DNA of 64,000 nt from Thermoanaerobaculia bacterium. Its GTDB lineage: Bacteria > Acidobacteriota > Thermoanaerobaculia > Gp7-AA8. The position numbers and the translations under genes are program-made. The stretch lies in assembly GCA_035482045.1 (NCBI GenBank), contig DATHRD010000015.1:14597-78596 (forward strand), read 5' to 3'. Under the pieces are notes generated by a model, which was not told where the DNA came from, ran no database searches, and saw only the letters and a list, made by a program, of their open reading frames with translations. Shown here piece by piece: positions 1,051-61,679 of this stretch; the first letter of the stretch is position 1, and each line of letters opens with the position of its first letter.

Positions 1051-1145
1051 CGCGGTAGCGCGGTCGCGGGGTTGCGCGGTCTCGCGGTTTTCAACACCCG
1101 AGACCCCGAAACCGCGAGACCGCGAAACCGCGAAACCGCACACAG
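1045..1145. repeat. GC-rich palindromic intergenic element of the GCGGTCTCGCGG / CCGCGAGACCGC family
   Basis: gcggtagcgcggtagcgcggtcgcggggttgcgcggtctcgcggtttt...gaaaccgcgagaccgcgaaaccgcgaaaccgc. Inverted arms with internal short direct repeats. Confidence 0.7.
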
Positions 1146-4411: not shown

Positions 4412-4515
4412 GAACGAACCGAGACGAATGTTGAATGTTGAACGTTGAGTGTTAAATGTTGAATGAAGGTCAGCCACTCAACATTCACCACTGAACATTC
4501 AACATTCAACATTCG
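4405..4515. repeat. imperfect long inverted repeat built from tandem AATGTTG heptamers, AT-rich relative to the rest of the window
   Basis: acgaatgttgaatgttgaacgttgagtgttaaatgttgaatg ... cactcaacattcaccactgaacattcaacattcaacattcgt. Overlaps the 3-prime end of allantoinase and the 5-prime region of the allantoicase fusion gene. Confidence 0.8.
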
Positions 4516-5878: not shown

Positions 5879-5912
5879 GCGCGCGGTGGGTGTGTTGACT
5901 TGTCATCCACTC

Positions 5913-6154
5913 TGTCATCCTGAGCCTGCCGGAGCCGCTGAGCGAGCGCAGCGCGAGTGCGGCGGAGGACGGCGAAGGATCTCCAGATGCGCTGCTTGGG
6001 GCAGAAGCACAGATGGGGTTTTGTCGTTGATCTTCCTCACAAAAACCACAGTTTCGCTACTGCCCCAGGCGCTGCCACTGGAGATCCTTCGCCGTCCTCC
6101 GCCGCTCTTCGCTCGCTACGCTCGCTCAGCGGCTGCGGCAGTCTCAGGATGACA
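5913..6154. mobile_element. MITE-like non-autonomous element, copy 1: about 74-bp near-perfect terminal inverted repeats with TGTCATCCTGAG termini
   Basis: Left arm tgtcatcctgagcctgccggagccgctgagcgagcgcagcgcgagtgcggcggaggacggcgaaggatctccag. Right arm ctggagatccttcgccgtcctccgccgctcttcgctcgctacgctcgctcagcggctgcggcagtctcaggatgaca. Central region of about 90 bp. A partial direct copy of the terminus (tgtcatcc) lies 12 bp upstream. Confidence 0.6.
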
Positions 6155-10694: not shown

Positions 10695-12164
10695 CTACAC
10701 CCGCGCGAAGCGACGTTCCGCCGCCTCTTCGAACACCTCGTACCAGAACTTCGCCATGATGTTCTCTGCGAGTTGCAGCCTGTAGTCGGCGGAGCCCCGC
10801 ACGTCGCTGATCGGCTTGATCTCGTCGCGGGCGATGCGGCCGGCGTGCTCGAAGGTATCAAGGGTGGCCGTCTTGCCGGCCAGGAAGGCTTCCGTGTGCG
10901 GGAGGCGGATGACGGTAGGGGCGACGCCGCCGTAGGCGATGATGGCGTGGTCGATCCGATCGCCGCTGATTGCCAATCGAATGGCGGCGGTGAAGGCGGA
11001 GATGTCGAGATCCTTGCGTCGCGAGACCTTGTAGAGCTTGAGCGTGTCGCGGACGATGGGGATGCGAACGCTGGTGATGATCTCGTCGGGATGGAGATCG
11101 AACTTCCGGTATCCGAGGTAGAAGCGGTCGATCGGAACGGTGCGAGTGCCGCCGTTCAGCGCGAGGGTGGCGCCGGCGACGAAGAGATAAGGCAACGTGT
11201 CGGCGATTGGAGAGCCGTTGGCGATGTTGCCGACCAGCGTTCCGGCGTTCTTGATCTGAGGTGAGCCGAACACGGCCAGGATGCCCGCCAGCTCGGGGAT
11301 GCGATCGGCGATGAACGTCTCGAAGTCGGCGAGCGTCGCATTCGCGCCGGCGACGATCGCGCCGTCTTCTTCGCGCAACTCGTTGAGCGATGCGATCTTC
11401 GACAGTGACAGCATCGCCGGCGCGGCGAGGTTCCGCTTGTTGACCCAGACGCCGACGTCGGTCCCCCCCTGCACGATCGTGCATCCGGGATGGCCGCGTT
11501 TGAAGGCGATTGCCTCGTCGAGCGTGGCCAGCGCGCAGAAGGAGCCGACCTCCACGGAATCGCTTGCATCCGGAAGATCGGGATAGCGGTCGCGCATCTT
11601 GCTGATCGGCGCGCCGTCGATCGCCAGCGCGGCCTTGATGATCGGCTCGTAGCCGGTGCAGCGGCAGAGGTTTCCGGTCAGCCCGTCACGTACCTGTTTT
11701 TCATCGACCCGGTCACAGCGCTCGAACATTCCGGCCATGGCCATGACGAAGCCGGGCGTGCAGTAGCCGCACTGCGCGCCGTGGCAACGAACCATGGCCT
11801 CCTGAACAGGATGGAGAACGTTTTTACGCGGAGACGCGGAGACGCGGAGGGAGTCCTCTTTTCTCCGCGTCTCCGCGCCTCCGCGTGAAACGGTTTTCGT
11901 TTCGCTCAATCCTTCCACCGTGACGATCGATGATCCATCGAGCTGCGCGAGCGAAAGGATGCAGGCGTTGACCGGACGATAGTCGGCATCGGCCGTGCGC
12001 CGGGTCAATACCGTGCAGGCGCCGCAATCCCCTTCCTCGCAGACGATCTTCGTCCCAGTGGCAGCGACATCCTGTCGAAGATAGTTCGCGAGGGTCTCGA
12101 AGGCGACATCGCCGGCGATGCGATGTTCACGGCCGTTGATGTGGATGAGGATGTGGTCGCGCAC
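10695..12164 (-). CDS. xdhA: xanthine dehydrogenase small subunit (2Fe-2S and FAD-binding)
   Basis: EEGDCGACTV and CGYCTPGFVM ferredoxin motifs followed by an FAD-binding domain. Contains an unusual in-frame palindromic segment (separate feature). Confidence 0.85.
   Translation of the reverse strand: MRDHILIHINGREHRIAGDVAFETLANYLRQDVAATGTKIVCEEGDCGACTVLTRRTADADYRPVNACILSLAQLDGSSIVTVEGLSETKTVSRGGAETRRKEDSLRVSASPRKNVLHPVQEAMVRCHGAQCGYCTPGFVMAMAGMFERCDRVDEKQVRDGLTGNLCRCTGYEPIIKAALAIDGAPISKMRDRYPDLPDASDSVEVGSFCALATLDEAIAFKRGHPGCTIVQGGTDVGVWVNKRNLAAPAMLSLSKIASLNELREEDGAIVAGANATLADFETFIADRIPELAGILAVFGSPQIKNAGTLVGNIANGSPIADTLPYLFVAGATLALNGGTRTVPIDRFYLGYRKFDLHPDEIITSVRIPIVRDTLKLYKVSRRKDLDISAFTAAIRLAISGDRIDHAIIAYGGVAPTVIRLPHTEAFLAGKTATLDTFEHAGRIARDEIKPISDVRGSADYRLQLAENIMAKFWYEVFEEAAERRFARV
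11826..11888. repeat. near-perfect 24-bp-stem hairpin embedded in frame in the xdhA interdomain linker
   Basis: cgcggagacgcggagacgcggaggga gtcctctttt ctccgcgtctccgcgcctccgcg. Encodes the low-complexity segment VSRGGAETRRKEDSLRVSASPRKN. Confidence 0.8.
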
Positions 12165-15169: not shown

Positions 15170-15415
15170 ACAACACCATCGAGAATGGCGATGTCGCCAA
15201 GAAAGATGGCGATGTTGCCATCGAACATGGCGATGTTGCCTTCGAAAATGGCGATATCGCCCCCAAAGATGGTGATTTGCCAAAAAAGATGGCGATGTCG
15301 CCCCCAAAGACGGCGATGTTGCCATCAAGGTTGATGATGTTGCCAAAAAAATGATGATGTCGCCAAGAAAAATGGCGAGGTTGTCATCCGAAGTGAGGAC
15401 GTTGCCATCACTCTC
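15170..15415. repeat. tandem array of about 11 degenerate 21-bp units, each containing the palindrome ATGGCGATGTTGCCAT
   Basis: gatggcgatgttgccatcgaac / atggcgatgttgccttcgaaa / atggcgatatcgcccccaaa ... Low-GC relative to the flanks. Lies upstream of the NCS1 permease gene and downstream of the dihydropyrimidinase gene. Confidence 0.8.
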
Positions 15416-18879: not shown

Positions 18880-19076
18880 CGGTTGCGGGGTCGCGCGGCA
18901 GCGTGATTGCGCGGTCTCGCGGATTCGGTTGCTGAGTCGCTGGGTTACTGAGTTGCTGAGTCTACGGAAGCTGCCCAGCAACCCAGCAACCCCAGCAACC
19001 CAGCAACCCCAGCAATCCAGCAACTCAGCAACTCAGCAACCCAGCACCCCGAGACCGCGCAGCCGCGAGACCGCGT
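18880..19076. repeat. long imperfect inverted repeat made of GTTGCTGAG / CCCAGCAAC short tandem units, flanked by GCGGTCTCGCGG and CGCGAGACCGCG
   Basis: Left arm gcgcggtctcgcggattcggttgctgagtcgctgggttactgagttgctgagtc. Right arm ccagcaacccagcaaccccagcaacccagcaaccccagcaatccagcaactcagcaactcagcaacccagcaccccgagaccgcgcagccgcgagaccgcg. Confidence 0.8.
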
Positions 19077-21040: not shown

Positions 21041-21076
21041 CGGTTCCGCGGTCTCGCAGGTTTCGCGGTCTCGCGG
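21041..21076. repeat. direct repeats of the cgcggtctcgc motif
   Basis: cggttccgcggtctcgcaggtttcgcggtctcgcgg. Confidence 0.6.
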
Positions 21077-21189
21077 TAAGGCGGCACGGACAAGAGTGCC
21101 TGTGCCTGAAAAGAAGGTTGCCGCGCGACGGCGCAACCTCGCGACCTCGTCTGCTATCCTTTGAGCTGTCGCCGTTTCGGAGGATTTCA

Positions 21190-22589: not shown

Positions 22590-22734
22590 GTGGTTGCTGA
22601 GTTGCAAGGTTGCTGGGTCTCTCGGCAGCGCGGTCTCGCAGTAGCGCGGCGGCCACGAGCAGAGACCGCGAGACTTCGAAACCGCGAGACTTCGAGACCC
22701 AGCAACCCAGCAACCCGCATCACAGCAACCCGCA
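22590..22734. repeat. inverted repeat element combining GTTGCTG / CAGCAAC units with GCGGTCTCG / CGAGACCGC cores
   Basis: gttgctgagttgcaaggttgctgggtctc...gcggtctcg ... cgagaccgcgagacttcgaaaccgcgagacttcgagacccagcaacccagcaacccgcatcacagcaacccgcatcacag. Confidence 0.8.
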
Positions 22735-23382
22735 TCACAGCCCTTCCAGCGGCAAATCGAGCAGCTCGAACTTATCCCAGCCGCGAAAGTCGAAGTGCCA
22801 CCATTCGGATGGCAATGGGTCGAAGCCGTGGCTGATCATGGCCTCCCGCAGCTTGGCGCGATTCGCGAGAACCTCGGCCGGCAGGTCGTTGAAGTCCTGG
22901 CGCGCCCGAGGGGTGAAGTCGTCGTAGCCGGTGGGCATCGGCAGCTCGCGGCCGGTGTGCAGATCGATGAGCGTCAGATCGACGGCCGCGCCGCGGTTGT
23001 GACGCGAGCCTTTGGCCGGGTCGGCGACGAAGTCGGGATTGCGGATCGGTTTCCACATCTGTACAGTCACGCGATAGGGCCGATAGCCGTCGAAGATCTT
23101 CAACCCCAGCCCCTGGCGCGCCAGATCGCGCTCGACATCGTGCAGTGCGATCGCGGCCGGGCGGCGCAGGAAGACTCGCGGCACCGGATACAACTGCTCG
23201 TGCATGAAGTTGTTCGTGGTGGCGTAGCGCACGTCACGCGGGAGGTCGGTGATCTCGACCAGCCGTTTGTCGGGGTCGGCAGCCACGAGCCGGTCGTACT
23301 CGGCGACATCGCGGACGACGGGCGGATGCGTCGTCGCGCATGCGGTCGCAAGGAGCAGCAATAGGGCGAGGGCTCTTCTCAT
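22735..23382 (-). CDS. D-Ala-D-Ala dipeptidase (VanX/DdpX, M15 family) lipoprotein
   Basis: SRHNRGAAVDLTL and EWWHFD motifs. Lipobox LLLLATAC. Confidence 0.75.
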   Translation of the reverse strand: MRRALALLLLLATACATTHPPVVRDVAEYDRLVAADPDKRLVEITDLPRDVRYATTNNFMHEQLYPVPRVFLRRPAAIALHDVERDLARQGLGLKIFDGYRPYRVTVQMWKPIRNPDFVADPAKGSRHNRGAAVDLTLIDLHTGRELPMPTGYDDFTPRARQDFNDLPAEVLANRAKLREAMISHGFDPLPSEWWHFDFRGWDKFELLDLPLEGL

Positions 23383-37099: not shown

Positions 37100-37240
37100 T
37101 TACCTGATGTTGGGGGGTGGGGAGTGGGGGTGGGGAGTGGGAGAGGGAGTCGCGGTGGGAAGCTACTGCTCTGAAATCCAACTCCCAACTGCCACTCCCA
37201 CCCCCCACTCCCCACTCCCCACCCCCCACCCCGCGATATC
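37100..37240. repeat. G-rich / C-rich long palindrome of the GGGGTGGGGAGTGG family between mglA-like and eda-like genes
   Basis: ggggggtggggagtgggggtggggagtgggagagggag ... ctcccaactgccactcccaccccccactccccactccccaccccccacccc. Confidence 0.8.
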
Positions 37241-37928: not shown

Positions 37929-39239
37929 GTGAGCGGATTGATTCAGAAGGCATACCTCGTTCCGGGGCAGCCGCATATTCTCCTTGCGCCGGACCGCAGC
38001 TCGGGCTGGGCGTCGCTCCGGCAGAGCTACGAGGCGATCGGCCGTGAGATCGAACGCTCCGGCGCGGAGCTGATGCTGCTCTATTCGACGCAATGGTTCT
38101 CCGTCATCGGCCATCTTTTCCAGACCGCTCCGAATCCGAAATGGACGTTGGTCGATCAAAACTGGTACGAGCTCGGCGAGATCCCCTATTCGTTCCGCGT
38201 CGATCCGGAGTTCGGAACGCTCTACGCCGGCATCTGCAAGGATCTCGGCATGCAGACGGCGACCGTCGACTATCACGGCTTCCCGATCGACACCGGTACC
38301 GTCGTCGCTCTCAAGCTGCTCAATCCCAACAATGCCGTGCCCGCGTCCGTGGTCTCGTGCAACATCTACGCGGAGCGCGATGAGACACGCGCCCTCGGCC
38401 GCGCCGCCCGGACCGCGATCGACCGCTACGGCAGAAAGACGATCGTCGTGGTGGTCTCGAATCTCTCCAACCGCTACGAGGTCGGCGACATCGACCCGGC
38501 ACAGGACCACATCTCCTCGTCGAAGGACGACGAATGGAACCGCAAGATCCTGGAGATGCTGGGCGAAGGCCGGCTCGAGGATGTGGCCCAGGTTGCCCGC
38601 GAGTTCGGCCGCGAGGCCAATGCCGACATGGGTTTCAAGGCCATCTGGTGGCTGGGCGCGCTCGCGGGCGAGAACAACAAGTACGACGGCAAGGTGTGGG
38701 ACTACCAGCCGGTCTGGGGTACGGGAAACGCGCTCGTCGAGCTGACGCCCAATCTGCACAAGGAGCTCGACTTCGAGAAGGAGTTCGACGAGGGGCCCGT
38801 CGATGCAGGAACGGGGCTGGAATCGCACAACGTGATCGCCGGCGGTTCAGAGGCGCTCGAGTCGGGCTTCAAGATCATCGCGCCCCAGGCTGCTTCTCCC
38901 GTCGGTGCCTATCCTCACGCACGCCGCGTTGGCGATCTGCTCTTCCTTTCCGGCATCGGGCCGCGGCGGCCGGTCACCAATGAAATCCCCGAAGGGATCG
39001 AGGCTCAGACGCGGGCCGCGGTCGACAATGTCCGGGCGATTCTCGAAGCGGCGGGCAGCTCGCTGGAGAAAATCCTGGACGTGACTGTCTATTTGACTGA
39101 CATGAAAGGCGACTTCGAGCGATTCAACCGGGTTTATACCGAGGTCCTCGGGATGATCCAGCCCACACGCACCACCGTGGGGGTCGACTCGTTGCCGACC
39201 CCGATCTCCGTCGAGATGAAGATCATCGCGTCAGCCTGA
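37929..39239 (+). CDS. class III extradiol ring-cleavage dioxygenase (LigB family) fused to a C-terminal RidA/YjgF-like domain
   Basis: GTG start immediately after the eda stop. C-terminal AYPHARRVGDLLFLSGIGP...VTVYLTDM is RidA-like. N-terminal about 300 aa is LigB-like. Confidence 0.45.
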   Translation: MSGLIQKAYLVPGQPHILLAPDRSSGWASLRQSYEAIGREIERSGAELMLLYSTQWFSVIGHLFQTAPNPKWTLVDQNWYELGEIPYSFRVDPEFGTLYAGICKDLGMQTATVDYHGFPIDTGTVVALKLLNPNNAVPASVVSCNIYAERDETRALGRAARTAIDRYGRKTIVVVVSNLSNRYEVGDIDPAQDHISSSKDDEWNRKILEMLGEGRLEDVAQVAREFGREANADMGFKAIWWLGALAGENNKYDGKVWDYQPVWGTGNALVELTPNLHKELDFEKEFDEGPVDAGTGLESHNVIAGGSEALESGFKIIAPQAASPVGAYPHARRVGDLLFLSGIGPRRPVTNEIPEGIEAQTRAAVDNVRAILEAAGSSLEKILDVTVYLTDMKGDFERFNRVYTEVLGMIQPTRTTVGVDSLPTPISVEMKIIASA

Positions 39240-39868
39240 TGACTCTCATCGACATTTCGCCTGTGATCGATGCCGCGATCAACGTCTGGCCGGGCGATAC
39301 ACCGTTCGTACGGACGATCAACGCCGACTTGAACGACGGCGCGAACCTGACGCTCAGCGACATCCGGACGTCGCTGCACGTCGGCGCGCATGCCGACGCG
39401 CCGAGCCATTACGTCGCGAACGGCGCCGACATCGCCTCGCGGCCGCTCGATCTCTACCTCGGCCTCTGCGTCGTTGTACACGTCGACGTCGCGCGCGGGG
39501 AGCGAATTACGCCCGACCATGTCGCGGACAAGTGCGAGGCTCTCACTGCACCGCGCGTCCTCTTTCGCACGGGGACGTTTCCCGACCATCGCCACTGGAA
39601 CAACGACTTCGCCAGCCTCTCACCCGAGCTGGTCGACGATCTCCACCACCACGGCGTTCGCCTCATCGGCATCGACACCCCCTCGGTCGATCCGTTCGAC
39701 TCGAAAGCGCTCGAGGCGCATCAAGCCTTCGCCAGGAACGACATGGCCATGCTCGAGGGACTCGTGCTCGACGGTGTCGAAGAAAGGGAGTACGAGCTGA
39801 TCGCTCTGCCGCTGCGAATCAAGGGTGCCGATGCCAGTCCCCTGCGGGCGGTGCTGCGAACGCTGTGA
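39239..39868 (+). CDS. cyclase-family protein (kynurenine formamidase KynB-like)
   Basis: HVGAHADAPSHY metal-binding motif of the cyclase / arylformamidase family. Confidence 0.6.
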   Translation: MTLIDISPVIDAAINVWPGDTPFVRTINADLNDGANLTLSDIRTSLHVGAHADAPSHYVANGADIASRPLDLYLGLCVVVHVDVARGERITPDHVADKCEALTAPRVLFRTGTFPDHRHWNNDFASLSPELVDDLHHHGVRLIGIDTPSVDPFDSKALEAHQAFARNDMAMLEGLVLDGVEEREYELIALPLRIKGADASPLRAVLRTL

Positions 39869-39879
39869 CCGAGGCCCCA

Positions 39880-40215
39880 GAGTCGATGTTTTGTCTCCCG
39901 GAGCAAAAGCTTTGACTCCCAGAGCCCAAGTCTTGACTCCCAGAGTCGAAGTTTTGACTGACAGAGTCGAAGTTTTGACTCCCGGAGTCGAAGTTTTGAC
40001 TCCCGGAGTCGCACTTTAGACTCCCAGAGTCGCACTTTAGACTCCCAGAGTCGCACTTTAGACTTCCGGAGTCGCACTTTAGACTTCCGGAGTCGCACTT
40101 TAGACTTCCGGAGTCGCACTTTAGACTCCCAGAGTCGCACTTTAGACTCTCAGAGTCGCACTTTAGACTCTCAGAGTCGCACTTTAGACTCTCAGAGTCG
40201 ATGCTTAGGCTCACT
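39880..40215. repeat. tandem array of about 15 copies of a 21-bp unit GAGTCGCACTTTAGACTCCCA, forming continuous alternating palindromes GAGTC...GACTC
   Basis: Early copies are the variant gagtcgaagttttgactccc[ag]. Later copies are gagtcgcactttagact[ct]cc[ag]. Lies in a convergent 3-prime/3-prime intergenic region. Confidence 0.85.
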
Positions 40216-40257
40216 GAGCGCCCTCGAGGCCCGAATAGCGGAACTTAACGGCGCCGG

Positions 40258-41316
40258 CTAGAGGCTCCGGTAGACCTCCATCAGTCTGGCGGCCGCTCTC
40301 TCGTAACCGAAGAGCTCCGATTGTTCGTACGCGCGTCGGCGGAGATCGGCGAGGTCACCGTTCGATGCCGCAATCACCTTCGAGGCCGTTGCATCCGGTG
40401 TTCCGTTATCGGCAATGAGCCGCGGTGCGAGATCGCCGAGCAGCGCGGACATCCCTTCGAGCGGAAACGTGACCGGCACGACCCCGCAGGCCATCGCCTC
40501 GAGAACCGCACGATGTCCTTCATCCGAGCCGCGGGCGGTGAAGAGGAGGACATCCGCGGCCCGGTAATACTCGGCAAGATCGTCCTCATGGTAACCGGCC
40601 CAGATCACGTCGATCGCGAGATCGCGCGCCAGGTTTTCGAGTGCGGGCCTGTGTTCGCCGTGTCCCACGATCATGAGGCGCGCGTTCGCGATCTCGCGCC
40701 GCACCAGGGAAAAGGTTCGCAGTACTTTTTCGAAGCCACGACCCTTCGAAAGCTTGCCGATCGCCAGCAGGAGCAAAACCTCCGGGCCGAGGCCGTAGTG
40801 TTCGCGGACGTCGCGTCCGATGGGAGTGAATTGCCGCTGAGGAATCGGCGGAGGAGTGAATTGAGGCTCGTGCCCGCGGATCGGCAAGGCATCGATAAAC
40901 GAGTCGTTGACGACGCAGATCCGGGCGGTGCGGGCGATCAGCCATCTCGTGAACAGATCGCCTCGTATCGCGCGCCGCGCGTGAAACGTTCGCACGACTT
41001 CAGTCCGCTTGCCGCGCGTTGCGAAATACGCGAGCCAATGGTCGTAGGTGAGGTGCGCGTGAATGACCTCGAATCGGTGATGATCGATGAGCCGCCCGAT
41101 CGTGTCGGCGGTGCTTGCGAACGAAAAGGGGTTCTGCGCTTTGGCGATGATGGGGTGCGCGAAATCGTGATGCCCGATCTTTTTCTGCAGCTTGTAGCCG
41201 CCGACGTATGCGAAGTGCGCGTCGACGCCGGCTTCCCGAAGCGCCTCTGTTTCGGCAAACGCCGGGGCGGCCGCGCCGGTCCATCGATTGCCGGCGGCGA
41301 GGTGGAGGACTTTCAT
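40258..41316 (-). CDS. GT4-family glycosyltransferase
   Basis: C-terminal EGHRAVLEAMACGVPVV-like motif (E...E). Start MKVLHLAAGNRWTGAA. Confidence 0.75.
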   Translation of the reverse strand: MKVLHLAAGNRWTGAAAPAFAETEALREAGVDAHFAYVGGYKLQKKIGHHDFAHPIIAKAQNPFSFASTADTIGRLIDHHRFEVIHAHLTYDHWLAYFATRGKRTEVVRTFHARRAIRGDLFTRWLIARTARICVVNDSFIDALPIRGHEPQFTPPPIPQRQFTPIGRDVREHYGLGPEVLLLLAIGKLSKGRGFEKVLRTFSLVRREIANARLMIVGHGEHRPALENLARDLAIDVIWAGYHEDDLAEYYRAADVLLFTARGSDEGHRAVLEAMACGVVPVTFPLEGMSALLGDLAPRLIADNGTPDATASKVIAASNGDLADLRRRAYEQSELFGYERAAARLMEVYRSL

Positions 41317-41319
41317 GCG

Positions 41320-41414
41320 GTTTTGTGGCTGCGGTCTTGCGGTCGCGGAGTGAAAGGCGGCGCTTCCGCGCAACCTCGCAACCGCGAGACCGCGATGTTA
41401 CACTCCGCGCCGCC
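41320..41414. repeat. GCGGTC / GACCGC palindromic element directly abutting two divergent start codons
   Basis: gcggtcttgcggtcgcgg ... cgcaaccgcgagaccgcg ATG. Left arm abuts the GT4 ATG on the minus strand. Confidence 0.75.
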
Positions 41415-41663: not shown

Positions 41664-42872
41664 GTGTCTCTCGCCAGACGTCTCGGCCTTCCTGAAGAGA
41701 CGCCCAAACCGGTCGCGCTGGCAGTCCTCTTTTACCTCGGTCATCTTTTCTGCGCCGGTTGGGCGGCCTCGTCCGAGATATTCGCGTTCGCGACGATGGT
41801 GACGGTCGGCTATGCGCTCTACCGGCGCCTGCTGGTCCCCTCGTTTCACATCCTCTACGTTCCGTTGGCGTTGTATGGACTCGACTCGACGGTCTCCTCG
41901 TTCGTGGCGGGCCGTCACATCCACACCTTCGGCGAGAGCGCGCTCTGGGGAAAGATGTTTCTCTTCCCGGCGGCGCTGATTCTCTTTCGAAACGTCCCAC
42001 GGAGCCGCGTGGCGGCTCTGCGGATGCTTCTCATCTTCGGCGTCTTCTCGGCGGGCTACGGCTTTGTGCAGTATTTTGCGCTGAGCGCACACCACGATCT
42101 CGATCACCGCATCACCGGCCCCGCGGCGCACGTGATGACTCTGTCGGGATTGCTCCTGCCCGTGGCGCTTTTGTTTCTCGTACTCTGGATCTACGACCTG
42201 CGCAATATGTTGCTCATCGCCGGCGTGGCGATGACGCACTTTGCTCTGCTGCTCACGTTCACACGCAGCGTGTGGCTTGGCTGGGTCGCGGCCGTGGCCG
42301 TCCTGCTCGTGCTGAAGTGGCCGAAAGCGTTGGCCTGGGCGGTGCCGGTGGCCATTCTGGCCGTCAGTTTCGCTCCGCTGCCCTTTTTCAGCAGGGTTGT
42401 CTCCAGCTTTGACGTGAGGCAGTCGTCGAACCTCGATCGAATCCGGATGGCGGAAGCCGGCATCGAGATCATCAAGGACTACCCGCTTTTCGGCGTAGGT
42501 CCGGCGAACGTCAAGGAAACCTATCCCCTTTACCGCAAGCACGATGCGCCCCGCTTCCGTATCCCACACCTGCACAACAACGTCATCCAGCTCTGGGCTG
42601 AGCGGGGGATCCTCGGGCTGGTGGCCTACCTCTTCCTCCAGTTTCTCTTCCTGCGCGCGTGTGCCCATGCTTGGGGGGGGCCGGCCACGAAGTTCGCGGA
42701 GGCCGGCGTCGCCGTGGCGGTCGGGCTGGCCGTGGCCGGCCTGTTCGAGTTCAACTTCGGCGATACCGAAGTCTTCTGGATGCTGCTGGACGTCTTCGCG
42801 CTCGTGATCGCCTTCATCGAACGGCCTCAGCCGTCGAATGAAGCCCTGTCGGCTGGTGTTCCGGGATCGTAA
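41664..42872 (+). CDS. O-antigen ligase / Wzy_C-domain polytopic membrane protein
   Basis: IPHLHNNVIQLWAERGILG matches the H..N....E.G signature of WaaL/Wzy_C. Confidence 0.6.
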   Translation: MSLARRLGLPEETPKPVALAVLFYLGHLFCAGWAASSEIFAFATMVTVGYALYRRLLVPSFHILYVPLALYGLDSTVSSFVAGRHIHTFGESALWGKMFLFPAALILFRNVPRSRVAALRMLLIFGVFSAGYGFVQYFALSAHHDLDHRITGPAAHVMTLSGLLLPVALLFLVLWIYDLRNMLLIAGVAMTHFALLLTFTRSVWLGWVAAVAVLLVLKWPKALAWAVPVAILAVSFAPLPFFSRVVSSFDVRQSSNLDRIRMAEAGIEIIKDYPLFGVGPANVKETYPLYRKHDAPRFRIPHLHNNVIQLWAERGILGLVAYLFLQFLFLRACAHAWGGPATKFAEAGVAVAVGLAVAGLFEFNFGDTEVFWMLLDVFALVIAFIERPQPSNEALSAGVPGS

Positions 42873-42974
42873 CCTTATCCCTGCCAGCCAGCGTCTGGAG
42901 AAGAAAACCGGTTGTAACCTTTCCCCGCGAGCTTGCGTCAAGTAGAGAGAACCGGGCCCGTAACCTTTCCCAGC

Positions 42975-43586
42975 ATGCCTTCGTCAAAGAAGAGAAACCG
43001 GGATTTGAAACGCCTGACCGATCAGGAGTTGATGGATCTCGTTCAGGCGGGTGATTTTTCTCCCGCCGCGGAGATTTACGAACGCTATTCGAGCCGTATC
43101 TACAGTTTTGCCTACCGCTTCCTGAGGAACAGCGAGGCGGCCGAGGACATAACCCAGGAAGTCTTCATCAAGATCATGAAACGCGCGGCCCAGTTTCACG
43201 GTGGATCAAAACTTTCGACGTGGCTTCTCGCAATCACGGCCAATTCCTGCCGCGACCACCTGAGGAAACAGGAGAACAGGCCGAAAGCAGGAGAGGATGT
43301 TTTGATCGAACTTCCCGCGCCATACGAGCTCTCGCCGGAGCGGTACATGGAGCGGCGCGACGCGGAAAGACGGATTCAGGAAGCGCTGACGGTGCTCACG
43401 CCCGACCAGCGCGAAGCCATTCTGCTCTCGCGGTACCAGGGACTCTCGTACGCCGAGATCGCGCAGGTTGCCGGTTGTTCGGAGGGAGCGGTGAAGACGA
43501 GAGTATTTCGCGCCATGGAGGTGCTGAAGAAAGCGCTGACCGGCGGTGCCCATGGAGGTGACCAATGCCTGACTGTGATGCCATGA
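42975..43586 (+). CDS. ECF-type sigma factor
   Basis: Sigma-70 regions 2 and 4 (SYAEIAQVAGCSEGAVKTRVFRA). Confidence 0.8.
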   Translation: MPSSKKRNRDLKRLTDQELMDLVQAGDFSPAAEIYERYSSRIYSFAYRFLRNSEAAEDITQEVFIKIMKRAAQFHGGSKLSTWLLAITANSCRDHLRKQENRPKAGEDVLIELPAPYELSPERYMERRDAERRIQEALTVLTPDQREAILLSRYQGLSYAEIAQVAGCSEGAVKTRVFRAMEVLKKALTGGAHGGDQCLTVMP

Positions 43587-44584
43587 GAGAAAACATGCCC
43601 CTGCTGCTGACCGAGTCGCTGGACCCGGTGCAGCGTGAGCTGACCCATCAGCACATCGAAACGTGCCCGGCCTGCACCAGAGACTGGTCTTCGTACAAAG
43701 AGACCTGGCGGATGCTCGACAGCCTTCCAGAGCTGGAAGTACCGGCTCGCGTGAAGCAGCGTTTCCTGGCCGGGATCGCACCGGAGCTTGCGGAAACGAA
43801 TGTTGTTCCATTCCATCGCGGTCGAGCGGTCCGCTGGCTGGCGCAGGCGGCAGCGATCGTCATCGTCGGCGGCAGCGCGTTCTATGCCGGCCACCGTGTG
43901 GCACCAAGGGTTCAGCTCAACCCGACAGAGGCAAGGGTGAGTGGTGTTCAGCAGCTTGTGCCTGCGGCCGCCTATTCGATCGCGGAATCGCGCGTCCTTC
44001 CCGCGGCTTCGATCAGCCCGCAAATCGAGGGACGGCCCGACATCCAGAACGTGCAATTCACCGATGCCACGCCGTCAAACGATCAGATCGGCGTCTCATT
44101 CGACATCACGTCTCACGTGACCGTGACCGGGCATCCGACAGACAAGAGCATGGTCAGCCTGTTGCGCTACGTTCTCGAGAACGAAGACCGGGAGTCGCCG
44201 TCGCGCTCGCGTGCCATCGACTGGGTCCGTTCGACGTACTCGCGTGTCGACAAGCCGGCCCCGGAGATCATCGACGCGCTGGCGAACGTGTTGCGCAACG
44301 ACCAGCACCAGGGTGTGCGCATCAAAGCCGCCGACACGCTGCAGTCGCTGCGGTCGGCGATGACCGACAGCACACGTGATGCGCTCGTCGAGGCGTTGAA
44401 AAACGATCCCAACCCGGCCGTCCGCATCAAAGCGGTCGAGGCATTGGCGAAGCTCGCGCGCAGCGGCGCCCCCCTCGATCCGGGGATGGTCGACATGCTC
44501 CGCCAGAAGGCTTCACAGGGTGACGAGAATGTTTATGTCCGCGTCAAAGCGGCAGAGGCACTGAGCAGCATTCAACCCCGATGA
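43565..44584 (+). CDS. anti-sigma factor: N-terminal zinc finger, TM helix, periplasmic HEAT-repeat domain
   Basis: HQHIETCPACTRDW. TM segment LAQAAAIVIVGGSAFYAG. C-terminal repeats ...VRIKAADTL... / ...VRIKAVEAL... / ...VRVKAAEAL.... Confidence 0.6.
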   Translation: MPDCDAMRENMPLLLTESLDPVQRELTHQHIETCPACTRDWSSYKETWRMLDSLPELEVPARVKQRFLAGIAPELAETNVVPFHRGRAVRWLAQAAAIVIVGGSAFYAGHRVAPRVQLNPTEARVSGVQQLVPAAAYSIAESRVLPAASISPQIEGRPDIQNVQFTDATPSNDQIGVSFDITSHVTVTGHPTDKSMVSLLRYVLENEDRESPSRSRAIDWVRSTYSRVDKPAPEIIDALANVLRNDQHQGVRIKAADTLQSLRSAMTDSTRDALVEALKNDPNPAVRIKAVEALAKLARSGAPLDPGMVDMLRQKASQGDENVYVRVKAAEALSSIQPR

Positions 44585-52325: not shown

Positions 52326-53627
52326 ATGCGCCCTCTTTTTGCAGCCATGGCTCTTATCGCCGCGGGTCTCAGCCCCGCTCTCGCGCAGCCTCTTGTCTGT
52401 CCCCCTGTCGCCTCCGTCGCCGGCCGTGCGTGCGACACGTTTCACTATCACGTGCAGATGTTCAAGCCGGATACCCGCGAGTTCGTCGAGCTTTACGGGG
52501 TCAACCAGTTCGCCTCGATGGCGGCTTGTGAACGTGCCCGCGATGTGCAGTTCAAACGCAACATGGCGGTTGTCGAGTTCTTTCGTGCGCAGAGGAGAGA
52601 CTGGTGGCAGGCCGACAAATTCGGGCAGTGCCATTGCGACATGACCGTCGAACGCGCCAGCCCGAACGCGTTGACGGACGCCGCGCGGGTCCAGCAGATC
52701 CACGACGCGGAAGAGGTTCGGCAACGCGTCCGGGAGCGCCTGCTCGATGCCAGAGTCCCGGCAGACGCAGAGCTGATCCGCGATCTGGCCCCGCCGGTCA
52801 GCACCACACCGCTCATCGGCGGTCCCAAGCTGGTGTCGATGCCGCCTCCGGTTGCGGCCACGACAGTCTCGGGCTCGCCCGACGATCTTCGGATCACGAA
52901 GGCGGTCGATACGACCCCAGCATCGACGACATCGCTCGATCTGCCTCTCGTCGATGTCCCGTTGCCGGGCATCGCGCCGGCCATGGAAACCGCTCCCGCC
53001 ACTACGCCGACGCAAGTGCCGCCGCCCTCCGTGCCGCAGACGTCTGCCCCGGCTCCAGTCAGCAACGCCCCGGCGCAAGCGGTTCCAGCACCGCAGCCCG
53101 CGCAACCTTCGCCAGCCCCCGTCTCCACCGAGCCGTTGGCCATCGTCGACGATCCCGATCTCCCGGCGCCTGAAGATGTCGCAGACGCCTTCGTCAGCTA
53201 TGAGTCGCAGCGTATCCAGAACGTGTTGAAGGTCAGCGGCAGCATCGGCGACGAATCGATCAAGGCTCAGGTGCTCGATGCCTGTACGCAGCGGATCCAA
53301 CTCCTTTCGAACCTTCGCTCGATCATCGTCGGGTCCGGTGCGAAGAGTCGTCTGGTCGCGGCCACGAATGTCGCGAGAAAAGAGAGCGACCGCCTGGCCG
53401 TGGTGGCAAAACTGTTCGGGAGTGACGTGCCGCCGCACTGGGCGCCCAAGGATGCGTCCGATGTGATCTTCGACCCGGGTGTCACGGACCCGGAGCGAGT
53501 GCTCCGCGACAGCTCGTCGTCCGATCAACAGAAACGCCACGCTCTCTACGTTCTGCTGGCGACGACATCGCCGACCGAGCAGCAGCAGATGTGGCTAAAC
53601 TCCGTGATCGAGGCGCTGCTGAAATGA
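52326..53627 (+). CDS. secreted hypothetical protein with Pro/Thr/Ala-rich linker
   Basis: Signal peptide MRPLFAAMALIAAGLSPALAQ. Low-complexity PAPQPAQPSPAP segment. No family recognised. Confidence 0.5.
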   Translation: MRPLFAAMALIAAGLSPALAQPLVCPPVASVAGRACDTFHYHVQMFKPDTREFVELYGVNQFASMAACERARDVQFKRNMAVVEFFRAQRRDWWQADKFGQCHCDMTVERASPNALTDAARVQQIHDAEEVRQRVRERLLDARVPADAELIRDLAPPVSTTPLIGGPKLVSMPPPVAATTVSGSPDDLRITKAVDTTPASTTSLDLPLVDVPLPGIAPAMETAPATTPTQVPPPSVPQTSAPAPVSNAPAQAVPAPQPAQPSPAPVSTEPLAIVDDPDLPAPEDVADAFVSYESQRIQNVLKVSGSIGDESIKAQVLDACTQRIQLLSNLRSIIVGSGAKSRLVAATNVARKESDRLAVVAKLFGSDVPPHWAPKDASDVIFDPGVTDPERVLRDSSSSDQQKRHALYVLLATTSPTEQQQMWLNSVIEALLK

Positions 53628-55423
53628 AACCAGAAACCAGAAACCAAGAACCAGAAACCAGAAACCAGAAACCAGCAAGCGTGCGGCGATCACGATTCTC
53701 ATTTCCGCCTTCTGGTTTCTGGTTTCTGGTTTCTGGTTTCTGCCTTCTGGTTTCTGCCTCCTGCCTTTTCGCGCAGGCGCCGCCAGCTTCGCCCGTTCCG
53801 GCGCAGCCCGCAGGCCCTCCTTCTCAGCCCGCCGCGTCCGCGGCCATGCCTCCGAGCGAAGAGTTCGTGAAGGCGGTTTACTTCGGCGAAAAGTTCGCCG
53901 AGATGAAGGATTACGCAAACGCCTATCAGCAGTTCGCGAAGGCGGACGCGCTGCAGCCCGATGTGCCAGGTGTGCTGTACAACATGGGGGTTCTCCTCGC
54001 CCGCGCCGGCCGCTTCTCGGAGGCACAGGCCAAGGTCGATCGCTACAACCAGCTCTTTCCGGCCGGTGCCGAGAAACCGCTCGTCGCCAAACTGCAACTC
54101 GATCTGGAGTTCGAGCGGGAGCTTCAAAAGAAACGGCAGACGGATGAGGAGTACACCGCCATCTTCACGAGGGGCCGGTTCCTTTACGGCAAGGGTGATC
54201 TTTCAGCCGCGCTCAAGCTGTTCCAGGACGCCGAGCAACAGCGCCCTACCGATCCGGCCGCCGTTTTCAACCAGGGCGTTGTCTATGAAAAGCTCGGGGA
54301 TCTGAACAGAGCGGCGGAGCGCTTTCACCGCTACGAAGAACTGGAGCCCGACGCGAACGCGAAGTCGTCGGCGGATCAGCGCCTGCTCGGTATCGAGAGC
54401 GAGATGTCGGACATGAAGACGAAGATTGTCTGCCCCTTCTGCGGATGGCGGCTGCCGATCGGGTCGATCTGGTGCCCGCACTGCTGGCACGGTCCGTATC
54501 TCACGTCACAATCGCACTGGAATTCGAGGCCGTGTACCGATGGAGCAACGGCGACGCGCGCGACGTATTACGCTGACGGTCGTTTCGCGAAAAACGATTC
54601 ACTGCCTTGTCTCTTCAACGGCATGATGCTCGACGCGCTCCGCTATACGCCTGACCGCCAGCGGCGAGTCCAGGAGACGCGCAAGGCCGAGGGGTGGACG
54701 TACAGCGGAGACCTCATCCAGGGGTGGCATGACCGGCAGGGCAATGAGATTCGTTACGTCCAGGGGGCCGACTACCTCGAAAAGATCGTTTCCCCCAGCG
54801 GCGGAGACCTGCTGCTGTTCAACGCTCACAAAGCGCCTGATGCCGGTATCTGGCTGCTCGATCGGGAGGATGTCGTCATCGACGGTCAGAAGTACACGTC
54901 GCGCTACACCTTCGACGCCCAGAATCGCGTCGCCGAGCAGCAGGTCGTTTATCAGAACGCCGCCGGCTGCAATGACGTCATCACGATGACGGCACTCGCC
55001 ACGTACACGAACGATCTTCTGGCGGGGTTGCAGATCCGCGGAGGTTATACGGGCACTGTCGTTCAGGGCTCGCCGCGCGTCGATTGGGAGGCCAACGTCG
55101 CCTTCTCCTATGACGTCAACGCGCGAGAGACGAAGGAAGAGCTGGCCGTGAGCTCGATGACGAAGACCTACACGGAAAAGCCCTACGGCATGATGCGTCA
55201 GGAAGTGGCCGCGCTCTATCCGGAAATGCGCGTCCGCAAACCGATCGAGAGGATCCTCTATCTCGGCGATCGCTGCGGTGTCTCCGGCACGACAGTCCTC
55301 GGCAATCCCGTCGACCTCCGGCCGTTCTATGCCCTCACTCCGAATCTGGCCGTGGCCATCGCCAGCGGCGTCACCCGTGCGACGGTGAGTTTCACGTATC
55401 CGGACTCGTATAGGGTTCGATAG
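53624..55423 (+). CDS. secreted TPR-containing protein; signal peptide encoded by a (GAAACCA)n / (TGGTTTC)n inverted repeat
   Basis: MKPETRNQEPETRNQKP...FWFLVSGFCLLVSASCLFAQA then TPR-like units. ATGA overlap with the upstream stop. Confidence 0.55.
   Translation: MKPETRNQEPETRNQKPASVRRSRFSFPPSGFWFLVSGFCLLVSASCLFAQAPPASPVPAQPAGPPSQPAASAAMPPSEEFVKAVYFGEKFAEMKDYANAYQQFAKADALQPDVPGVLYNMGVLLARAGRFSEAQAKVDRYNQLFPAGAEKPLVAKLQLDLEFERELQKKRQTDEEYTAIFTRGRFLYGKGDLSAALKLFQDAEQQRPTDPAAVFNQGVVYEKLGDLNRAAERFHRYEELEPDANAKSSADQRLLGIESEMSDMKTKIVCPFCGWRLPIGSIWCPHCWHGPYLTSQSHWNSRPCTDGATATRATYYADGRFAKNDSLPCLFNGMMLDALRYTPDRQRRVQETRKAEGWTYSGDLIQGWHDRQGNEIRYVQGADYLEKIVSPSGGDLLLFNAHKAPDAGIWLLDREDVVIDGQKYTSRYTFDAQNRVAEQQVVYQNAAGCNDVITMTALATYTNDLLAGLQIRGGYTGTVVQGSPRVDWEANVAFSYDVNARETKEELAVSSMTKTYTEKPYGMMRQEVAALYPEMRVRKPIERILYLGDRCGVSGTTVLGNPVDLRPFYALTPNLAVAIASGVTRATVSFTYPDSYRVR
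53625..53765. repeat. inverted repeat composed of tandem GAAACCA heptamers (left arm) and TGGTTTC heptamers (right arm)
   Basis: gaaaccagaaaccagaaaccaagaaccagaaaccagaaaccagaaacc ... ttctggtttctggtttctggtttctgccttctggtttctg. Confidence 0.85.
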
Positions 55424-58414: not shown

Positions 58415-58493
58415 TTGCGAAGTGGCGCGGTTGCGGGGTCTCGCGGCGGCCGGCTACCGCGCGACCTCGGAACCGCGAGACTGCGAGACCGCG
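58415..58493. repeat. GCGGTCTCGCGG palindromic element abutting the bshA start codon
   Basis: gcggttgcggggtctcgcgg ... ccgcgagactgcgagaccgcg ATG. Confidence 0.75.
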
Positions 58494-59612
58494 ATGAGAA
58501 TCGGCATCACCTGCTATCCCACATTCGGAGGCTCGGGCGTTGTGGCCACGGAGCTCGGCGTCGCCCTGGCCCGCGGCGGCGACGACGTTCACTTCATAAG
58601 CTACGCCATGCCGTCGCGCCTCAACGTGCTGCACGAGCGCGTCCGCTTTCACGAGGTAACGGTCACGCCGTATCCCCTGTTTGATCCGTACCCGCCCTAC
58701 ACGCTGGCTCTGGCCACGAAGATGGCCGAGGTGGCCGTTTACGAAAAGCTCGACATCCTCCACGTGCACTACGCGATCCCGCACGCCATCAGCGCGCACC
58801 TGGCGCGCGAGATCGTCGGCTCGAAGGACCTTCGCTTCATCACGACGCTGCACGGTACCGACATAACGCTCGTCGGACGCGACGCAAGTTATCTGCCGAT
58901 CACCAGGTTCGGCATCGAGGTGTCCGACGGCGTGACCGCGGTGTCGGAATGGCTTCGAAAAGAGACCGCGAAGAACTTCGCCACCGAGAAGGAAATCGAA
59001 GTCATCCCGAACTTCGTCGATCCGGCCCGATTCCGCAAGCACGACAGCTCTCTCTCGAATCTTTTCTCCTCTTCGGGCGAGAAGCTGCTCTGTCATGTCT
59101 CCAACTTCCGCCCCGTCAAACGGATCATGGACGTGCTCGTGGTGTTCGAGCGCGTGTCGCGCGTGGTGCCCAGTCGTCTGGTGATGATCGGCGACGGCCC
59201 GGACCGTTCCCTCGCGGAGGCCTTCTGCCGCGACCATCACCTGCGCGAGAAAGTCTTTTTCCTCGGCAACGTTCCGAACCTCGAGGAGGTCGTTGGCGCC
59301 GCGGACGTTTTTCTCCTCCCGTCCGAGGCCGAGTCATTCGGTATGGCCGCTCTCGAAGCGATGGCCTCCGAGGTGCCGGTGATCGGCAGCCGTGCCGGCG
59401 GCCTGACCGAAGTCGTCGTGGAGGGAGAGACCGGCTACCTTCTCCCCGTCGGCGACGTCGAAGCGATGGCCGAGCGCGCCATCGAGATCCTCTCGAATCC
59501 CGACCTCCACCGCCGCCTGGGGCGGAATGGGCGGGATCTGGCGGAGGGGAAGTTCAACGTGAATCGTGTGGTGCCGAGGTATCGGGAGTTCTACGAGAGG
59601 GTGATCGGGTAG
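58494..59612 (+). CDS. bshA: GT4 glycosyltransferase BshA-like (N-acetylglucosaminyl-malate synthase)
   Basis: [22 protein letters not shown] is a BshA-type N-terminus. C-terminal E..E GT4 motif. Confidence 0.7.
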
Positions 59613-61007: not shown

Positions 61008-61095
61008 ATAGGACGCGGTGTGTCGCGGTCTCGGGGTTGCGGGGTTACGAGGTCTCGGGGTTACGAGATCGCGGAGTGGGGGTTGCTGGGTTGCT
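61008..61095. repeat. GCGGTCTCG-family element forming the left flank of a 22-bp tandem array
   Basis: gcggtgtgtcgcggtctcggggttgcggggttacgaggtctcggggttacgagatcgcggagtgggggttgctgggttgc. Confidence 0.7.
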
Positions 61096-61129: not shown

Positions 61130-61620
61130 TCAGTCATGGCTGTGAATCCGTCCATTCCAGACCCCGTGACTTGATGTCCCAGACCCCGAGACCTGATGTT
61201 CTGAACCCCGTGGATTGACGTCCCAAACCCCGAGACCTGACGTTCCACACTTCGGGACTCGCGTTCCGTACCCGGGACCTGACGTTCCGCACCCCGGGAC
61301 CTGACGTTCCGCACCCCGGGACCTGAGGTTCCGGACCCCGGGACCTGACGTTCCACACCCCGGGACCTGACGTTCCGGACCCCGAGACCTGACGTTCCGG
61401 ACCCCGAGACCTGACGTTCCGCACCCCGGGACCTGACGTTCCGGGCCCCGAAACCTGACGTTTCACACCCCGGGACCTGACGTTACGGACCCCGAGACCT
61501 GACATTACGCACCCTGGGACCTGACGTACCAAACCCCGAGACCTGACGTACCAAACCCCGAGACCTGACGTTACGGACCCCGAGACCTGACGTTACGGAC
61601 CCCGAGACCCGACGTTCCAC
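61130..61620. repeat. tandem array of about 20 degenerate copies of a 22-bp unit ACCCCGGGACCTGACGTTCCGC
   Basis: Copy variants accccgagacctgacgttccgg, accccgggacctgaggttccgg and others, with period 22. Closed by accgcgagaccgc at about 61620-61632. Confidence 0.85.
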
Positions 61621-61679
61621 ACCGCGAGACCGCATAACCTCGGCCCATGACCCACCTGCCGAAACTGCGCGACCGCGAA

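Follow-up and report, generated by a model that had tools for sequence, protein, structure and literature searches.

A 21-bp palindromic tandem array between convergent genes in Thermoanaerobaculia is a member of an interspersed repeat family

Cyanobacterial STRR sequences fill intergenic DNA with hairpin-forming short tandem repeats, 7-nt heptamers that are not individually palindromic. Tandem units are also found in plasmid centromeres and iterons: sopC of the F plasmid has 12 copies of 43 bp with an inverted repeat, and further examples are parC of R1 and the 20-bp repeats of pSK41. In the pneumococcal BOX element the boxB unit is 45 nt long. Here we describe an array of 21-bp units, each built on a short palindrome, that lies at positions 39880–40215 of a 64,000-nt stretch of contig DATHRD010000015.1 from a Thermoanaerobaculia bacterium (hereafter the window), flanked by the genes for a cyclase and a GT4 glycosyltransferase. 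The array is a member of a repeat family, was gained in this lineage and changes by gain and loss of whole units. Both the interspersed family and the recent gain at the junction are new relative to a preliminary description of the locus.

Several described elements offer points of comparison. BrickBuilt, a transposable element of the miniature inverted-repeat type from Porphyromonas gingivalis, consists of a tandem 23-nt minisatellite without spacers, with a 'leader' and a 'tail' that have small inverted-repeat ends; it is host-restricted, occurs in 19 copies per genome, always intergenic, and its promoter activity has been demonstrated (PMC4596501). BOX elements are intergenic and species-restricted, follow the order boxA–boxB(n)–boxC with variable tandem central units and have extensive secondary structure; they have been judged parasitic, slow to transpose and possibly able to affect genes co-transcribed with them (PMC3049150). 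Repetitive extragenic palindromic (REP) sequences and the bacterial interspersed mosaic elements (BIMEs) are extragenic palindromes that can cluster and that lie at 3′ ends and within operons, with proposed roles in mRNA stability, termination and supercoiling (PMC3733652, PMC3116915). A GTAG or CGTC tag marks the REPs, which number in the hundreds, mostly single or paired, and are linked to REP-associated tyrosine transposases (RAYTs) (PMC3733652, PMC3116915).

Structure and history of the junction array

A register print of the window resolves 16 in-register units of the form GAGTC-N8-GACTC-N3, head to tail (Table 1), in line with the roughly 15 copies counted in the preliminary description; a 17th, very degenerate unit lies beyond them at 40216–40236. 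Tandem Repeats Finder (TRF) returned a period of 21 with 15.5 copies, 90–92% matches and 0% indels over 39876–40201. The two-unit pattern GAGTC-N8-GACTC-N3-GAGTC-N8-GACTC occurs six times in the window, always within the array, against 0.00 times in 100 dinucleotide shuffles. The units are less uniform than first described: the intact GAGTC-N8-GACTC that had been ascribed to every unit is found in only 8 of 16, three have GACTT, and units 1–4 and 16 are degenerate; decayed edge units are seen in related arrays too. Likewise, the junctions said to recreate GACTC-CCA-GAGTC do so in a looser form, with 12 of them fitting GACT[CT][CT][CG][AG]GAGTC. The description of the array as a chain of alternating palindromes with many possible hairpins is correct. 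Both strands fold far more stably than shuffles (z = -9.3 and -7.3), as expected by construction because the repeat is palindromic.

Unit types differ in predicted stability and in order. Two 'early' units reach -13.0 kcal/mol per unit on the plus strand and -9.4 on the minus strand; the 'late' units give -7 to -9 kcal/mol per unit, with single hairpins of -3.7 and -5.9 kcal/mol. The late units come in runs of identical variants: CCCA twice, TTCCG three times, CCCA once and CTCA three times. An independent ENA assembly (L001) is 100% identical to the window over 20,630 bases except for one extra 21-bp TTCCG unit, giving 17 units rather than 16, and these counts together with the blocks of identical variants establish that whole units are gained and lost. 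Two more contigs, one from Logan and one from JGI, are interrupted in or at the array. The samples ENA ERZ27253567 and JGI 3300050821 contain this strain. Because it is present in independent assemblies, the array is no assembly artefact.

Pfam matches bear out the earlier placement of the array between a plus-strand cyclase gene and a convergent minus-strand GT4 gene. Three orthologous junctions with the same gene order have no array. In L172, whose LigB-RidA protein is 90% identical to that of the window, a 5-bp spacer separates cyclase and GT4, and in L174 (83%) and L175 (82%) the two genes overlap by 50 bp. Comparison with these sequences indicates that the array was gained after the split from relatives whose two genes abut or overlap. 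The GT4 protein terminates with VYRSL in the window and with VYGQLSSPSRR in L172; in L174 and L175 it extends further.

A fourth relative, L176, carries a different array at the same junction. Its LigB-RidA protein is 94% identical to that of the window and its flanking genes are 86–89% identical at the nucleotide level, and the spacer of 612 bp holds an array at 5558–6080 (22 bp x 23.8, GAAGG-GTGCGAA-CCTTC-CCCGA) that likewise has 5-bp inverted arms, GAAGG/CCTTC. The L176 cyclase has lost its stop codon and is 8 residues longer. In both the window and L176, where the protein ends in VYRPF, GT4 stops two residues after VYR, and this clipping at the same point suggests a single gain in their ancestor, after which the units turned over completely; independent gains in the two lineages are also possible. 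Copies of an 8-bp direct repeat, CGAGGCCC, stand on either side of the window array; the repeat maps poorly onto the empty orthologous sites and could have arisen as a target duplication or by decay of a unit.

The repeat family across genomes

The survey of other loci proposed in the preliminary description found the same architecture at many of them, so the array is not unique. We scanned one genome per species from 185,579 species for the two-unit pattern. Of the 41 matching loci, 35 fall in five Thermoanaerobaculia metagenome-assembled genomes (MAGs), with 14 in the complete 6.64-Mb chromosome OY970284.1, 12 in Chersky.31_28 and 7 in SMAG_U12840. None of the six matches outside this class was counted as family; three of them were translated, and the matches in Planctomycetota, Myxococcales and Streptomyces were rejected as lying within long open reading frames (ORFs) as 7-aa repeats. 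On metagenome contigs the relaxed pattern GAGKC...GMCTC matched at least 119 stretches, and at least about 45 arrays have four or more units among the matches listed. A phage or plasmid origin was rejected, viral contigs holding three single, chance-level matches and plasmid and phage collections giving no BLAST match to the arrays. The window organism belongs to the same clade: its GlmS and that of OY970284.1 share 93% identity, and its LigB-RidA protein is 100% identical to that of an NCBI contig labelled 'MAG TPA: Thermoanaerobaculia bacterium'. Full-text searches found no literature linking Thermoanaerobaculia with tandem repeats.

Family arrays share the build [GAG(T/G)C-N8-G(A/C)CTC-N3]n. 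They comprise 2–24 units, overwhelmingly of 21 bp, with some 22-bp and some compound 42-, 43-, 63- and 64-bp periods. In most arrays the arms reach 7–8 of 8 pairs, a perfect example being GAGTCCAC-TA-GTGGACTC-GTG. N8 and N3 are uniform within an array and differ between loci. Units were found only in arrays; 334 kb from the clade contained none in isolation. Every Thermoanaerobaculia array is intergenic, and all kinds of gene context are represented: for example, arrays separate convergent genes, stand upstream of the genes for pyruvate kinase (pyk) and a secreted hydrolase, and occupy the rimM–trmD gap of a ribosomal operon. Where an ORF seems to contain an array, an open repeat frame is joined to a real gene whose start lies beyond the array. 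The genes beside the arrays of L008 and L024 were considered as a shared mobile gene and rejected, being orthologous trmFO-like genes by sequence reading.

Orthologous loci across species keep the array with other N8, N3 or arm variants (L006 and L009, L007 and L018, L026 and L030, L008 and L024). Composite arrays place GAGTC, GAGGC, hybrid and GAGGTC (22-bp) units side by side; new variants therefore emerge and spread within the array. At arm position 4 a T/A or G/C pair is usual, with frequent mismatched hybrids such as GAGGC...GACTC. In a covariation check TA and GC pairs predominate at this position, but hybrids are so common that the test is not clean, and a strand check by G-T versus A-C mismatches had too few independent cases. 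Among 27 unrelated arrays of 21–22 bp, perfect 5-bp arms occur in 8, against 2 expected. Of 27 clade arrays, 23 have a period of 21 and 4 a period of 22, with none at 20 or 23.

Most related arrays are embedded in a larger element. A conserved leader of about 140 nt, ending in GGCCAAAACTGGTAAGTCGGCGGACTCCGC, lies on one side, and a tail of about 55 nt, starting with GGGGTGCGCCGCATCTGCCGGAATTGGTGGTCAGCC, on the other; profile searches located the leader at 34 loci and the tail at 22. Leader-like or tail-like motifs stand at 46 of 53 arrays with enough flank, and the other 7, the window array among them, are 'solo' arrays; the window array is accordingly filed here as a putative solo repeat module of the family rather than a complete element. 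Where they adjoin the array, leader and tail form imperfect inverted repeats, which fold into a closing stem. A second, diverged flank subtype occurs in L005, L021, L034, L038, L039 and L042. Leaders are more than 85% alike between non-orthologous copies, and leader-to-tail orientation relative to the neighbouring gene differs between L018 and L041, the examples checked. A small peptide in the leader was rejected, indels of 1, 2 and 13 nt breaking every frame. The leader gave no compensatory pairs among 15 sequences, no Rfam match and no sigma-70 consensus.

A number of metagenome contigs with much lower GC also carry 21-bp GAGTC/GGCCTC or GAGTC/GACTC arrays, for example GAGGCCAGCGGATGACTCGCG; the contigs are L048, L050, L062, L078, L091, L155 and L157 (GC 0.42–0.46) and L063, L065, L066 and L099 (0.48–0.51).

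Table 1. Positions of the array, its parts and neighbours, other repeats of the window and selected related loci
Feature	Position	Strand	Basis or remark
Array, 16 units	39880..40215	none	TRF, register, pattern statistics
Four degenerate edge units: GAGTCGATGTTTTGTCTCCCG, GAGCAAAAGCTTTGACTCCCA, GAGCCCAAGTCTTGACTCCCA, GAGTCGAAGTTTTGACTGACA	39880..39963		Register print
Two 'early' units, GAGTCGAAGTTTTGACTCCCG	39964..40005		Plus-strand arms reach 8 pairs, one G-U
Nine 'late' units, GAGTCGCACTTTAGACT(C/T)(C/T)C(A/G)	40006..40194		Pairing limited to 5-bp arms
Copy-number-variable block, 3 TTCCG units	40048..40110		4 in assembly L001
Two degenerate terminal units, GAGTCGATGCTTAGGCTCACT, GAGCGCCCTCGAGGCCCGAAT	40195..40236		First (40195-40215) counted within the 16
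8-bp direct repeat CGAGGCCC, left copy	39870..39877		Read from sequence
8-bp direct repeat CGAGGCCC, right copy	40225..40232		Read from sequence
Cyclase gene (Pfam Cyclase)	39239..39868	+	Stop 11 bp before array
GT4 glycosyltransferase gene (Glycos_transf_1 / Glyco_transf_4)	40258..41373	-	Convergent; C-terminal tail shorter than orthologues'
Relic of ancestral GT4 3′ coding tail, TTAACGGCGCCGG	40245..40257	-	Now past premature stop; aligns to longer L172 tail
Mirror arrays, window	1043-1139, 4426-4514, 11826-11886, 18928-19075, 21042-21149		
Mirror arrays, window (continued)	22616-22741, 37111-37232, 53626-53767, 58456-58494, 61015-61094		
Modular leader-array-tail examples	L008 3058-3480; L013 1066-1700; L041 302-822; L030 3678-4185		About 30 other loci
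XRE/143-161-aa gene pair near arrays	L149 3693-4413; L154 2645-3430; L035, L161, L010, L040, L043, L082/L170		
XRE/143-161-aa gene pair near arrays, further loci	L130, L117, L145, L092, L051, L039, L042, L143, L033		

Possible origins and roles of the array

On balance we lean towards reading the array as a slippage-driven, non-coding palindromic minisatellite from a lineage-specific interspersed intergenic family of one Thermoanaerobaculia clade, an account we hold to be somewhat better than an even bet. It looks like selfish or near-neutral DNA, not a dedicated terminator. A solo array would have reached, or arisen in, the junction after the lineage split, with clipping of the GT4 tail. Each small palindrome could pair with either neighbour, so that hairpins would stabilise slipped strands; hairpin-stabilised replication slippage or unequal exchange would then preferentially amplify palindromic variants and replace older units. 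Such amplification would explain why 5-bp inverted arms and a 21–22-bp period are kept despite turnover of sequence. Both convergent mRNAs would gain a 3′ untranslated region able to form a chain of weak hairpins, and any effect on the host would be at most REP- or BOX-like, on transcript stability or read-through.

Several observations weigh against this account. Even nhmmer --max, run on the local region, detects neither a leader nor a tail at the window copy, and because these modules are lacking we only infer mobility for this copy; de novo origin at the junction is a possible alternative. No transposase partner turned up, although no genome-wide transposase search was made, and there is no clean target-site duplication. 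Local alignment of the window array edge with the L176 left flank scores no higher than shuffles do and so does not demonstrate shared descent. Dozens of loci retain GAGTC/GACTC with the 8+3 spacing, a constancy that is partly by construction because the search pattern fixed those positions; sequence-specific recognition accounts for it no less well than hairpin selection does, and the common mismatched hybrids fit such recognition too. Persistence of arrays at orthologous sites, together with the likeness of the leaders, hints at some selection.

One other explanation invokes a dimeric DNA-binding protein that would recognise the inverted half-sites GAGTC/GACTC, with a 21-bp period, or two helical turns, placing the sites on one face of the DNA; the product would be a cooperative nucleoprotein array like plasmid centromeres and iterons (sopC, parC), or a nucleoid-organising site. 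We think this unlikely. Half-sites and 8/3 spacing are invariant while N8 and N3 vary freely, with the same caveat about the search pattern, and hybrids mismatched at arm position 4, which hairpin selection would disfavour, are tolerated. Even the non-palindromic arrays of the clade keep the period of 21, as the count of 23 in 27 shows, yet a common period may go back to a founder unit. For about 20 arrays the position is just downstream of a small-protein gene that reads toward the array. Its product, whose C-terminus reads as ribbon-helix-helix-like, gave no Pfam or NCBIfam hit; the family numbers 55 clusters among 5.8 billion, and one homologue has a precomputed hit to HTH_17, a helix-turn-helix (HTH) family. 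We nevertheless rejected this HTH protein as the binder: the promoter region of its gene holds AT-rich palindromic operators and no GAGTC, and relatives without arrays carry the gene in an XRE / SymE-toxin module resembling a toxin–antitoxin (TA) system. Moreover, the window encodes no homologue of the protein, and its flanks consist of metabolic and cell-wall genes, not par or rep, with no plasmid match. A single sequence-specific binder cannot explain both the window arms and the GAAGG/CCTTC arms of L176 at the same junction, and arm positions 6–8 differ between arrays yet mostly stay complementary. More speculative, and a shade less probable again, is the idea that the arrays are chromosomal landing pads for the clade's dimeric DNA-binding protein, forming a dispersed centromere-like or nucleoid-organising system that might be linked to the XRE / HTH_17 gene pair beside about 20 arrays. 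If this were true, dozens of dimers would coat one DNA face at about 15 or more sites per chromosome; protein binding of this sort would amount to a new kind of chromosomal array system. In a related version, the hairpin chain would be a domesticated RNA or DNA structural module whose architecture, and not sequence, is selected, which would fit the occurrence of GAGTC/GACTC and GAAGG/CCTTC arms at one junction.

The remaining explanations concern RNA, protein or restriction. Improbable, to much the same degree as the binding protein, is a host-selected RNA element in which the hairpin chain would terminate or insulate transcription or shield 3′ ends from exonucleases. In its favour, the array lies between convergent genes, 11 bp past one stop codon; both strands fold well, the early units give 7–8-bp stems followed by GAAGTTTT on the plus strand, and such effects are described for REP elements (PMC3733652) and for BOX (PMC3049150). 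The bidirectional terminator array put forward in the preliminary description is nevertheless not supported, and the array falls outside the intrinsic terminator class: the nine late units have 5-bp stems with no U-run and at most 3 T, a terminator scan gave 1 weak site against 0.8 expected, and the three orthologous junctions manage with a 5-bp spacer or overlapping genes. Family arrays also stand between rimM and trmD, upstream of pyk and at other places where termination would harm, and their leader-to-tail orientation relative to the neighbouring gene differed (L018, L041). Far less probable still is an independent non-coding RNA gene, for example a multi-hairpin small RNA serving as a sponge for an RNA-binding protein. 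Although repeated hairpins resemble sponges of the CsrB/RsmZ type and the conserved leader of related elements could hold a promoter, the whole window has no Rfam match at the gathering threshold, five related loci searched in E-value mode gave only malK-III (32.4 bits against a cut-off of 50, repeat-driven and inside a relative's array), and promoter scans found no sigma-70-like promoter. The leaders show no covariation, the window copy has no leader, and conservation within the unit falls on the stem and not on the loops; the earlier idea of a structured RNA gene likewise has no support. An in-frame 7-residue repeat protein is scarcely credible and was rejected on six-frame translation, the ORF list and Pfam. 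Twenty-one bp make 7 codons, and a minus-strand ORF at 39819–40214 has a sub-threshold heptad beta-roll match (E = 3e-4, 21 bits against a cut-off of 30); but only two of six frames span the array, one per strand, where all had been called open. The open plus-strand frame has no start codon and the minus-strand ORF would overlap the cyclase 3′ end. Periods of 22, 43 and 64 bp occur in the family, L025 units have stops on both strands, true gene starts lie after the arrays in relatives, and orthologues exist with no array. A role in restriction–modification or methylation, as a cluster of PleI/MlyI (GAGTC) or GANTC sites, has next to nothing in its favour beyond the fact that every arm is both a GANTC and a GAGTC site. 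The possible relevance of these Type IIS sites, raised earlier, is not borne out: outside the array, where base composition predicts about 68 occurrences, GAGTC is present 51 times and GACTC 47 times, which does not amount to avoidance, and sister arrays use GAGGC, GAGGTC or GAAGG arms, which are not such sites.

The genes beside about 20 arrays form a divergent pair, an XRE-type HTH protein of 76–84 aa and a protein of 143–161 aa, the larger of which reads toward the array; several copies are frameshifted. In the array-free relatives L166, L168 and L169 the pair is followed by a SymE_toxin gene. The arrays may hitch-hike with this TA-like module or may have replaced its toxin. In L167, downstream of an HTH_17-family gene, two other arrays, at 5739–5909 (36 bp x 4.7) and 6598–7022 (43 bp x 9.3), surround a symE remnant; the region therefore seems to attract several kinds of repeat.

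Neighbouring repeats, significance and comparison with described systems

The window also holds many intergenic mirror arrays, in which n copies of a 7–8-nt unit are followed by a loop and n reverse complements, as in GAAACCA x7 ... TGGTTTC x7 (Table 1). Six that were folded give hairpins of 20–50 bp at -44 to -93 kcal/mol (z = -7 to -11). The mirror unit families CGCGGTCTCG and CCCAGCAAC recur in related MAG loci, and the GGGGAGT/CCCACTC pair at 37111–37232 appears to be kept at the apparent corresponding position in L174 and L175. These mirror arrays are an STRR-like genome-wide habit, arguably as striking as the 21-bp array itself. Straight after one of them, at 61155–61631, lies an array of 22 bp x 21.8 (TTCCGGACCCCGAGACCTGACG) whose period is not a multiple of 3 and which has no 5-bp inverted arms (best 4/5). 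Another, of 21 bp x 9.6 (ATGGCGATGTTGCCAACAAAG), stands between two minus-strand genes at 15185–15407; several of its units contain a GGCGA-TG-TCGCC mini-palindrome, and it is probably non-coding because indels break the frames. Three tandem 46-bp copies at 42861–43002, each GTAACC-N16-(G/T)CGTC, lie directly upstream of a Sigma70_ECF gene (about 42996–43607) and look like what we take, from the promoter consensus of extracytoplasmic function (ECF) sigma factors, to be a triplicated autoregulated ECF promoter. Between Ras-like and aldolase genes, L171 (2474–2763) and L176 (2575–2756) have a 93–97-bp unit repeated two to three times; at the corresponding place the window, L174 and L175 have a G-rich/C-rich mirror array.

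The arrays have practical consequences. They break short-read assemblies, several contigs ending within them, and they create spurious long ORFs and false upstream extensions of real genes; their copy number varies between near-identical strains and could serve as a strain marker. The occupied, empty and replaced states of one junction form a natural series for the birth and turnover of palindromic minisatellites and for the reshaping of gene 3′ ends. The family, for which no description was found, adds an interspersed repeat to an uncultured and abundant soil class.

Set against described systems, the array was rejected as a CRISPR array, its units being contiguous with no unique spacers and its flanks a cyclase and a GT4 gene. 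Unlike REPs, the window units contain neither GTAG nor CGTC, and no such tag is consistent in the family; nor are there singletons in 334 kb, the arrays being long, uniform and head to tail. No RAYT was identified for the Thermoanaerobaculia arrays, no whole-genome protein search of the MAGs having been made. The period of 21.0 bp, near whole helical turns, and the pair of 5-bp inverted arms per unit recall plasmid centromeres and iterons, as does the position of some relatives' arrays directly downstream of a predicted small DNA-binding-protein gene. By contrast with those systems, the arrays are chromosomal and occupy many loci, their arms differ between arrays, and the window copy has no par or rep gene beside it and no plasmid homology. 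With STRRs they share lineage-wide intergenic short tandem hairpin repeats, and the window has many 7–8-nt mirror arrays, a likeness that is analogy only.

The resemblance extends further to modular elements. With BOX the relatives' arrays share a modular build, here leader, array and tail, a variable number of tandem units, an intergenic position, a restricted host range and extensive secondary structure; they differ in having no sequence similarity to it and in forming no BOX-like ORFs. BrickBuilt, of another phylum, likewise has no sequence similarity to the Thermoanaerobaculia arrays, and unlike it each of their units is palindromic, while the window copy is without leader and tail and no sigma-70 consensus was found. 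As in BrickBuilt, however, units of 21–22 nt are combined with a leader of about 140 nt and a tail of about 55 nt, both with inverted ends next to the array, and one chromosome holds at least 14 copies. The feature, real and clearly non-random, is of an ordinary kind: a lineage-specific interspersed palindromic minisatellite, like BrickBuilt, BOX and BIME.

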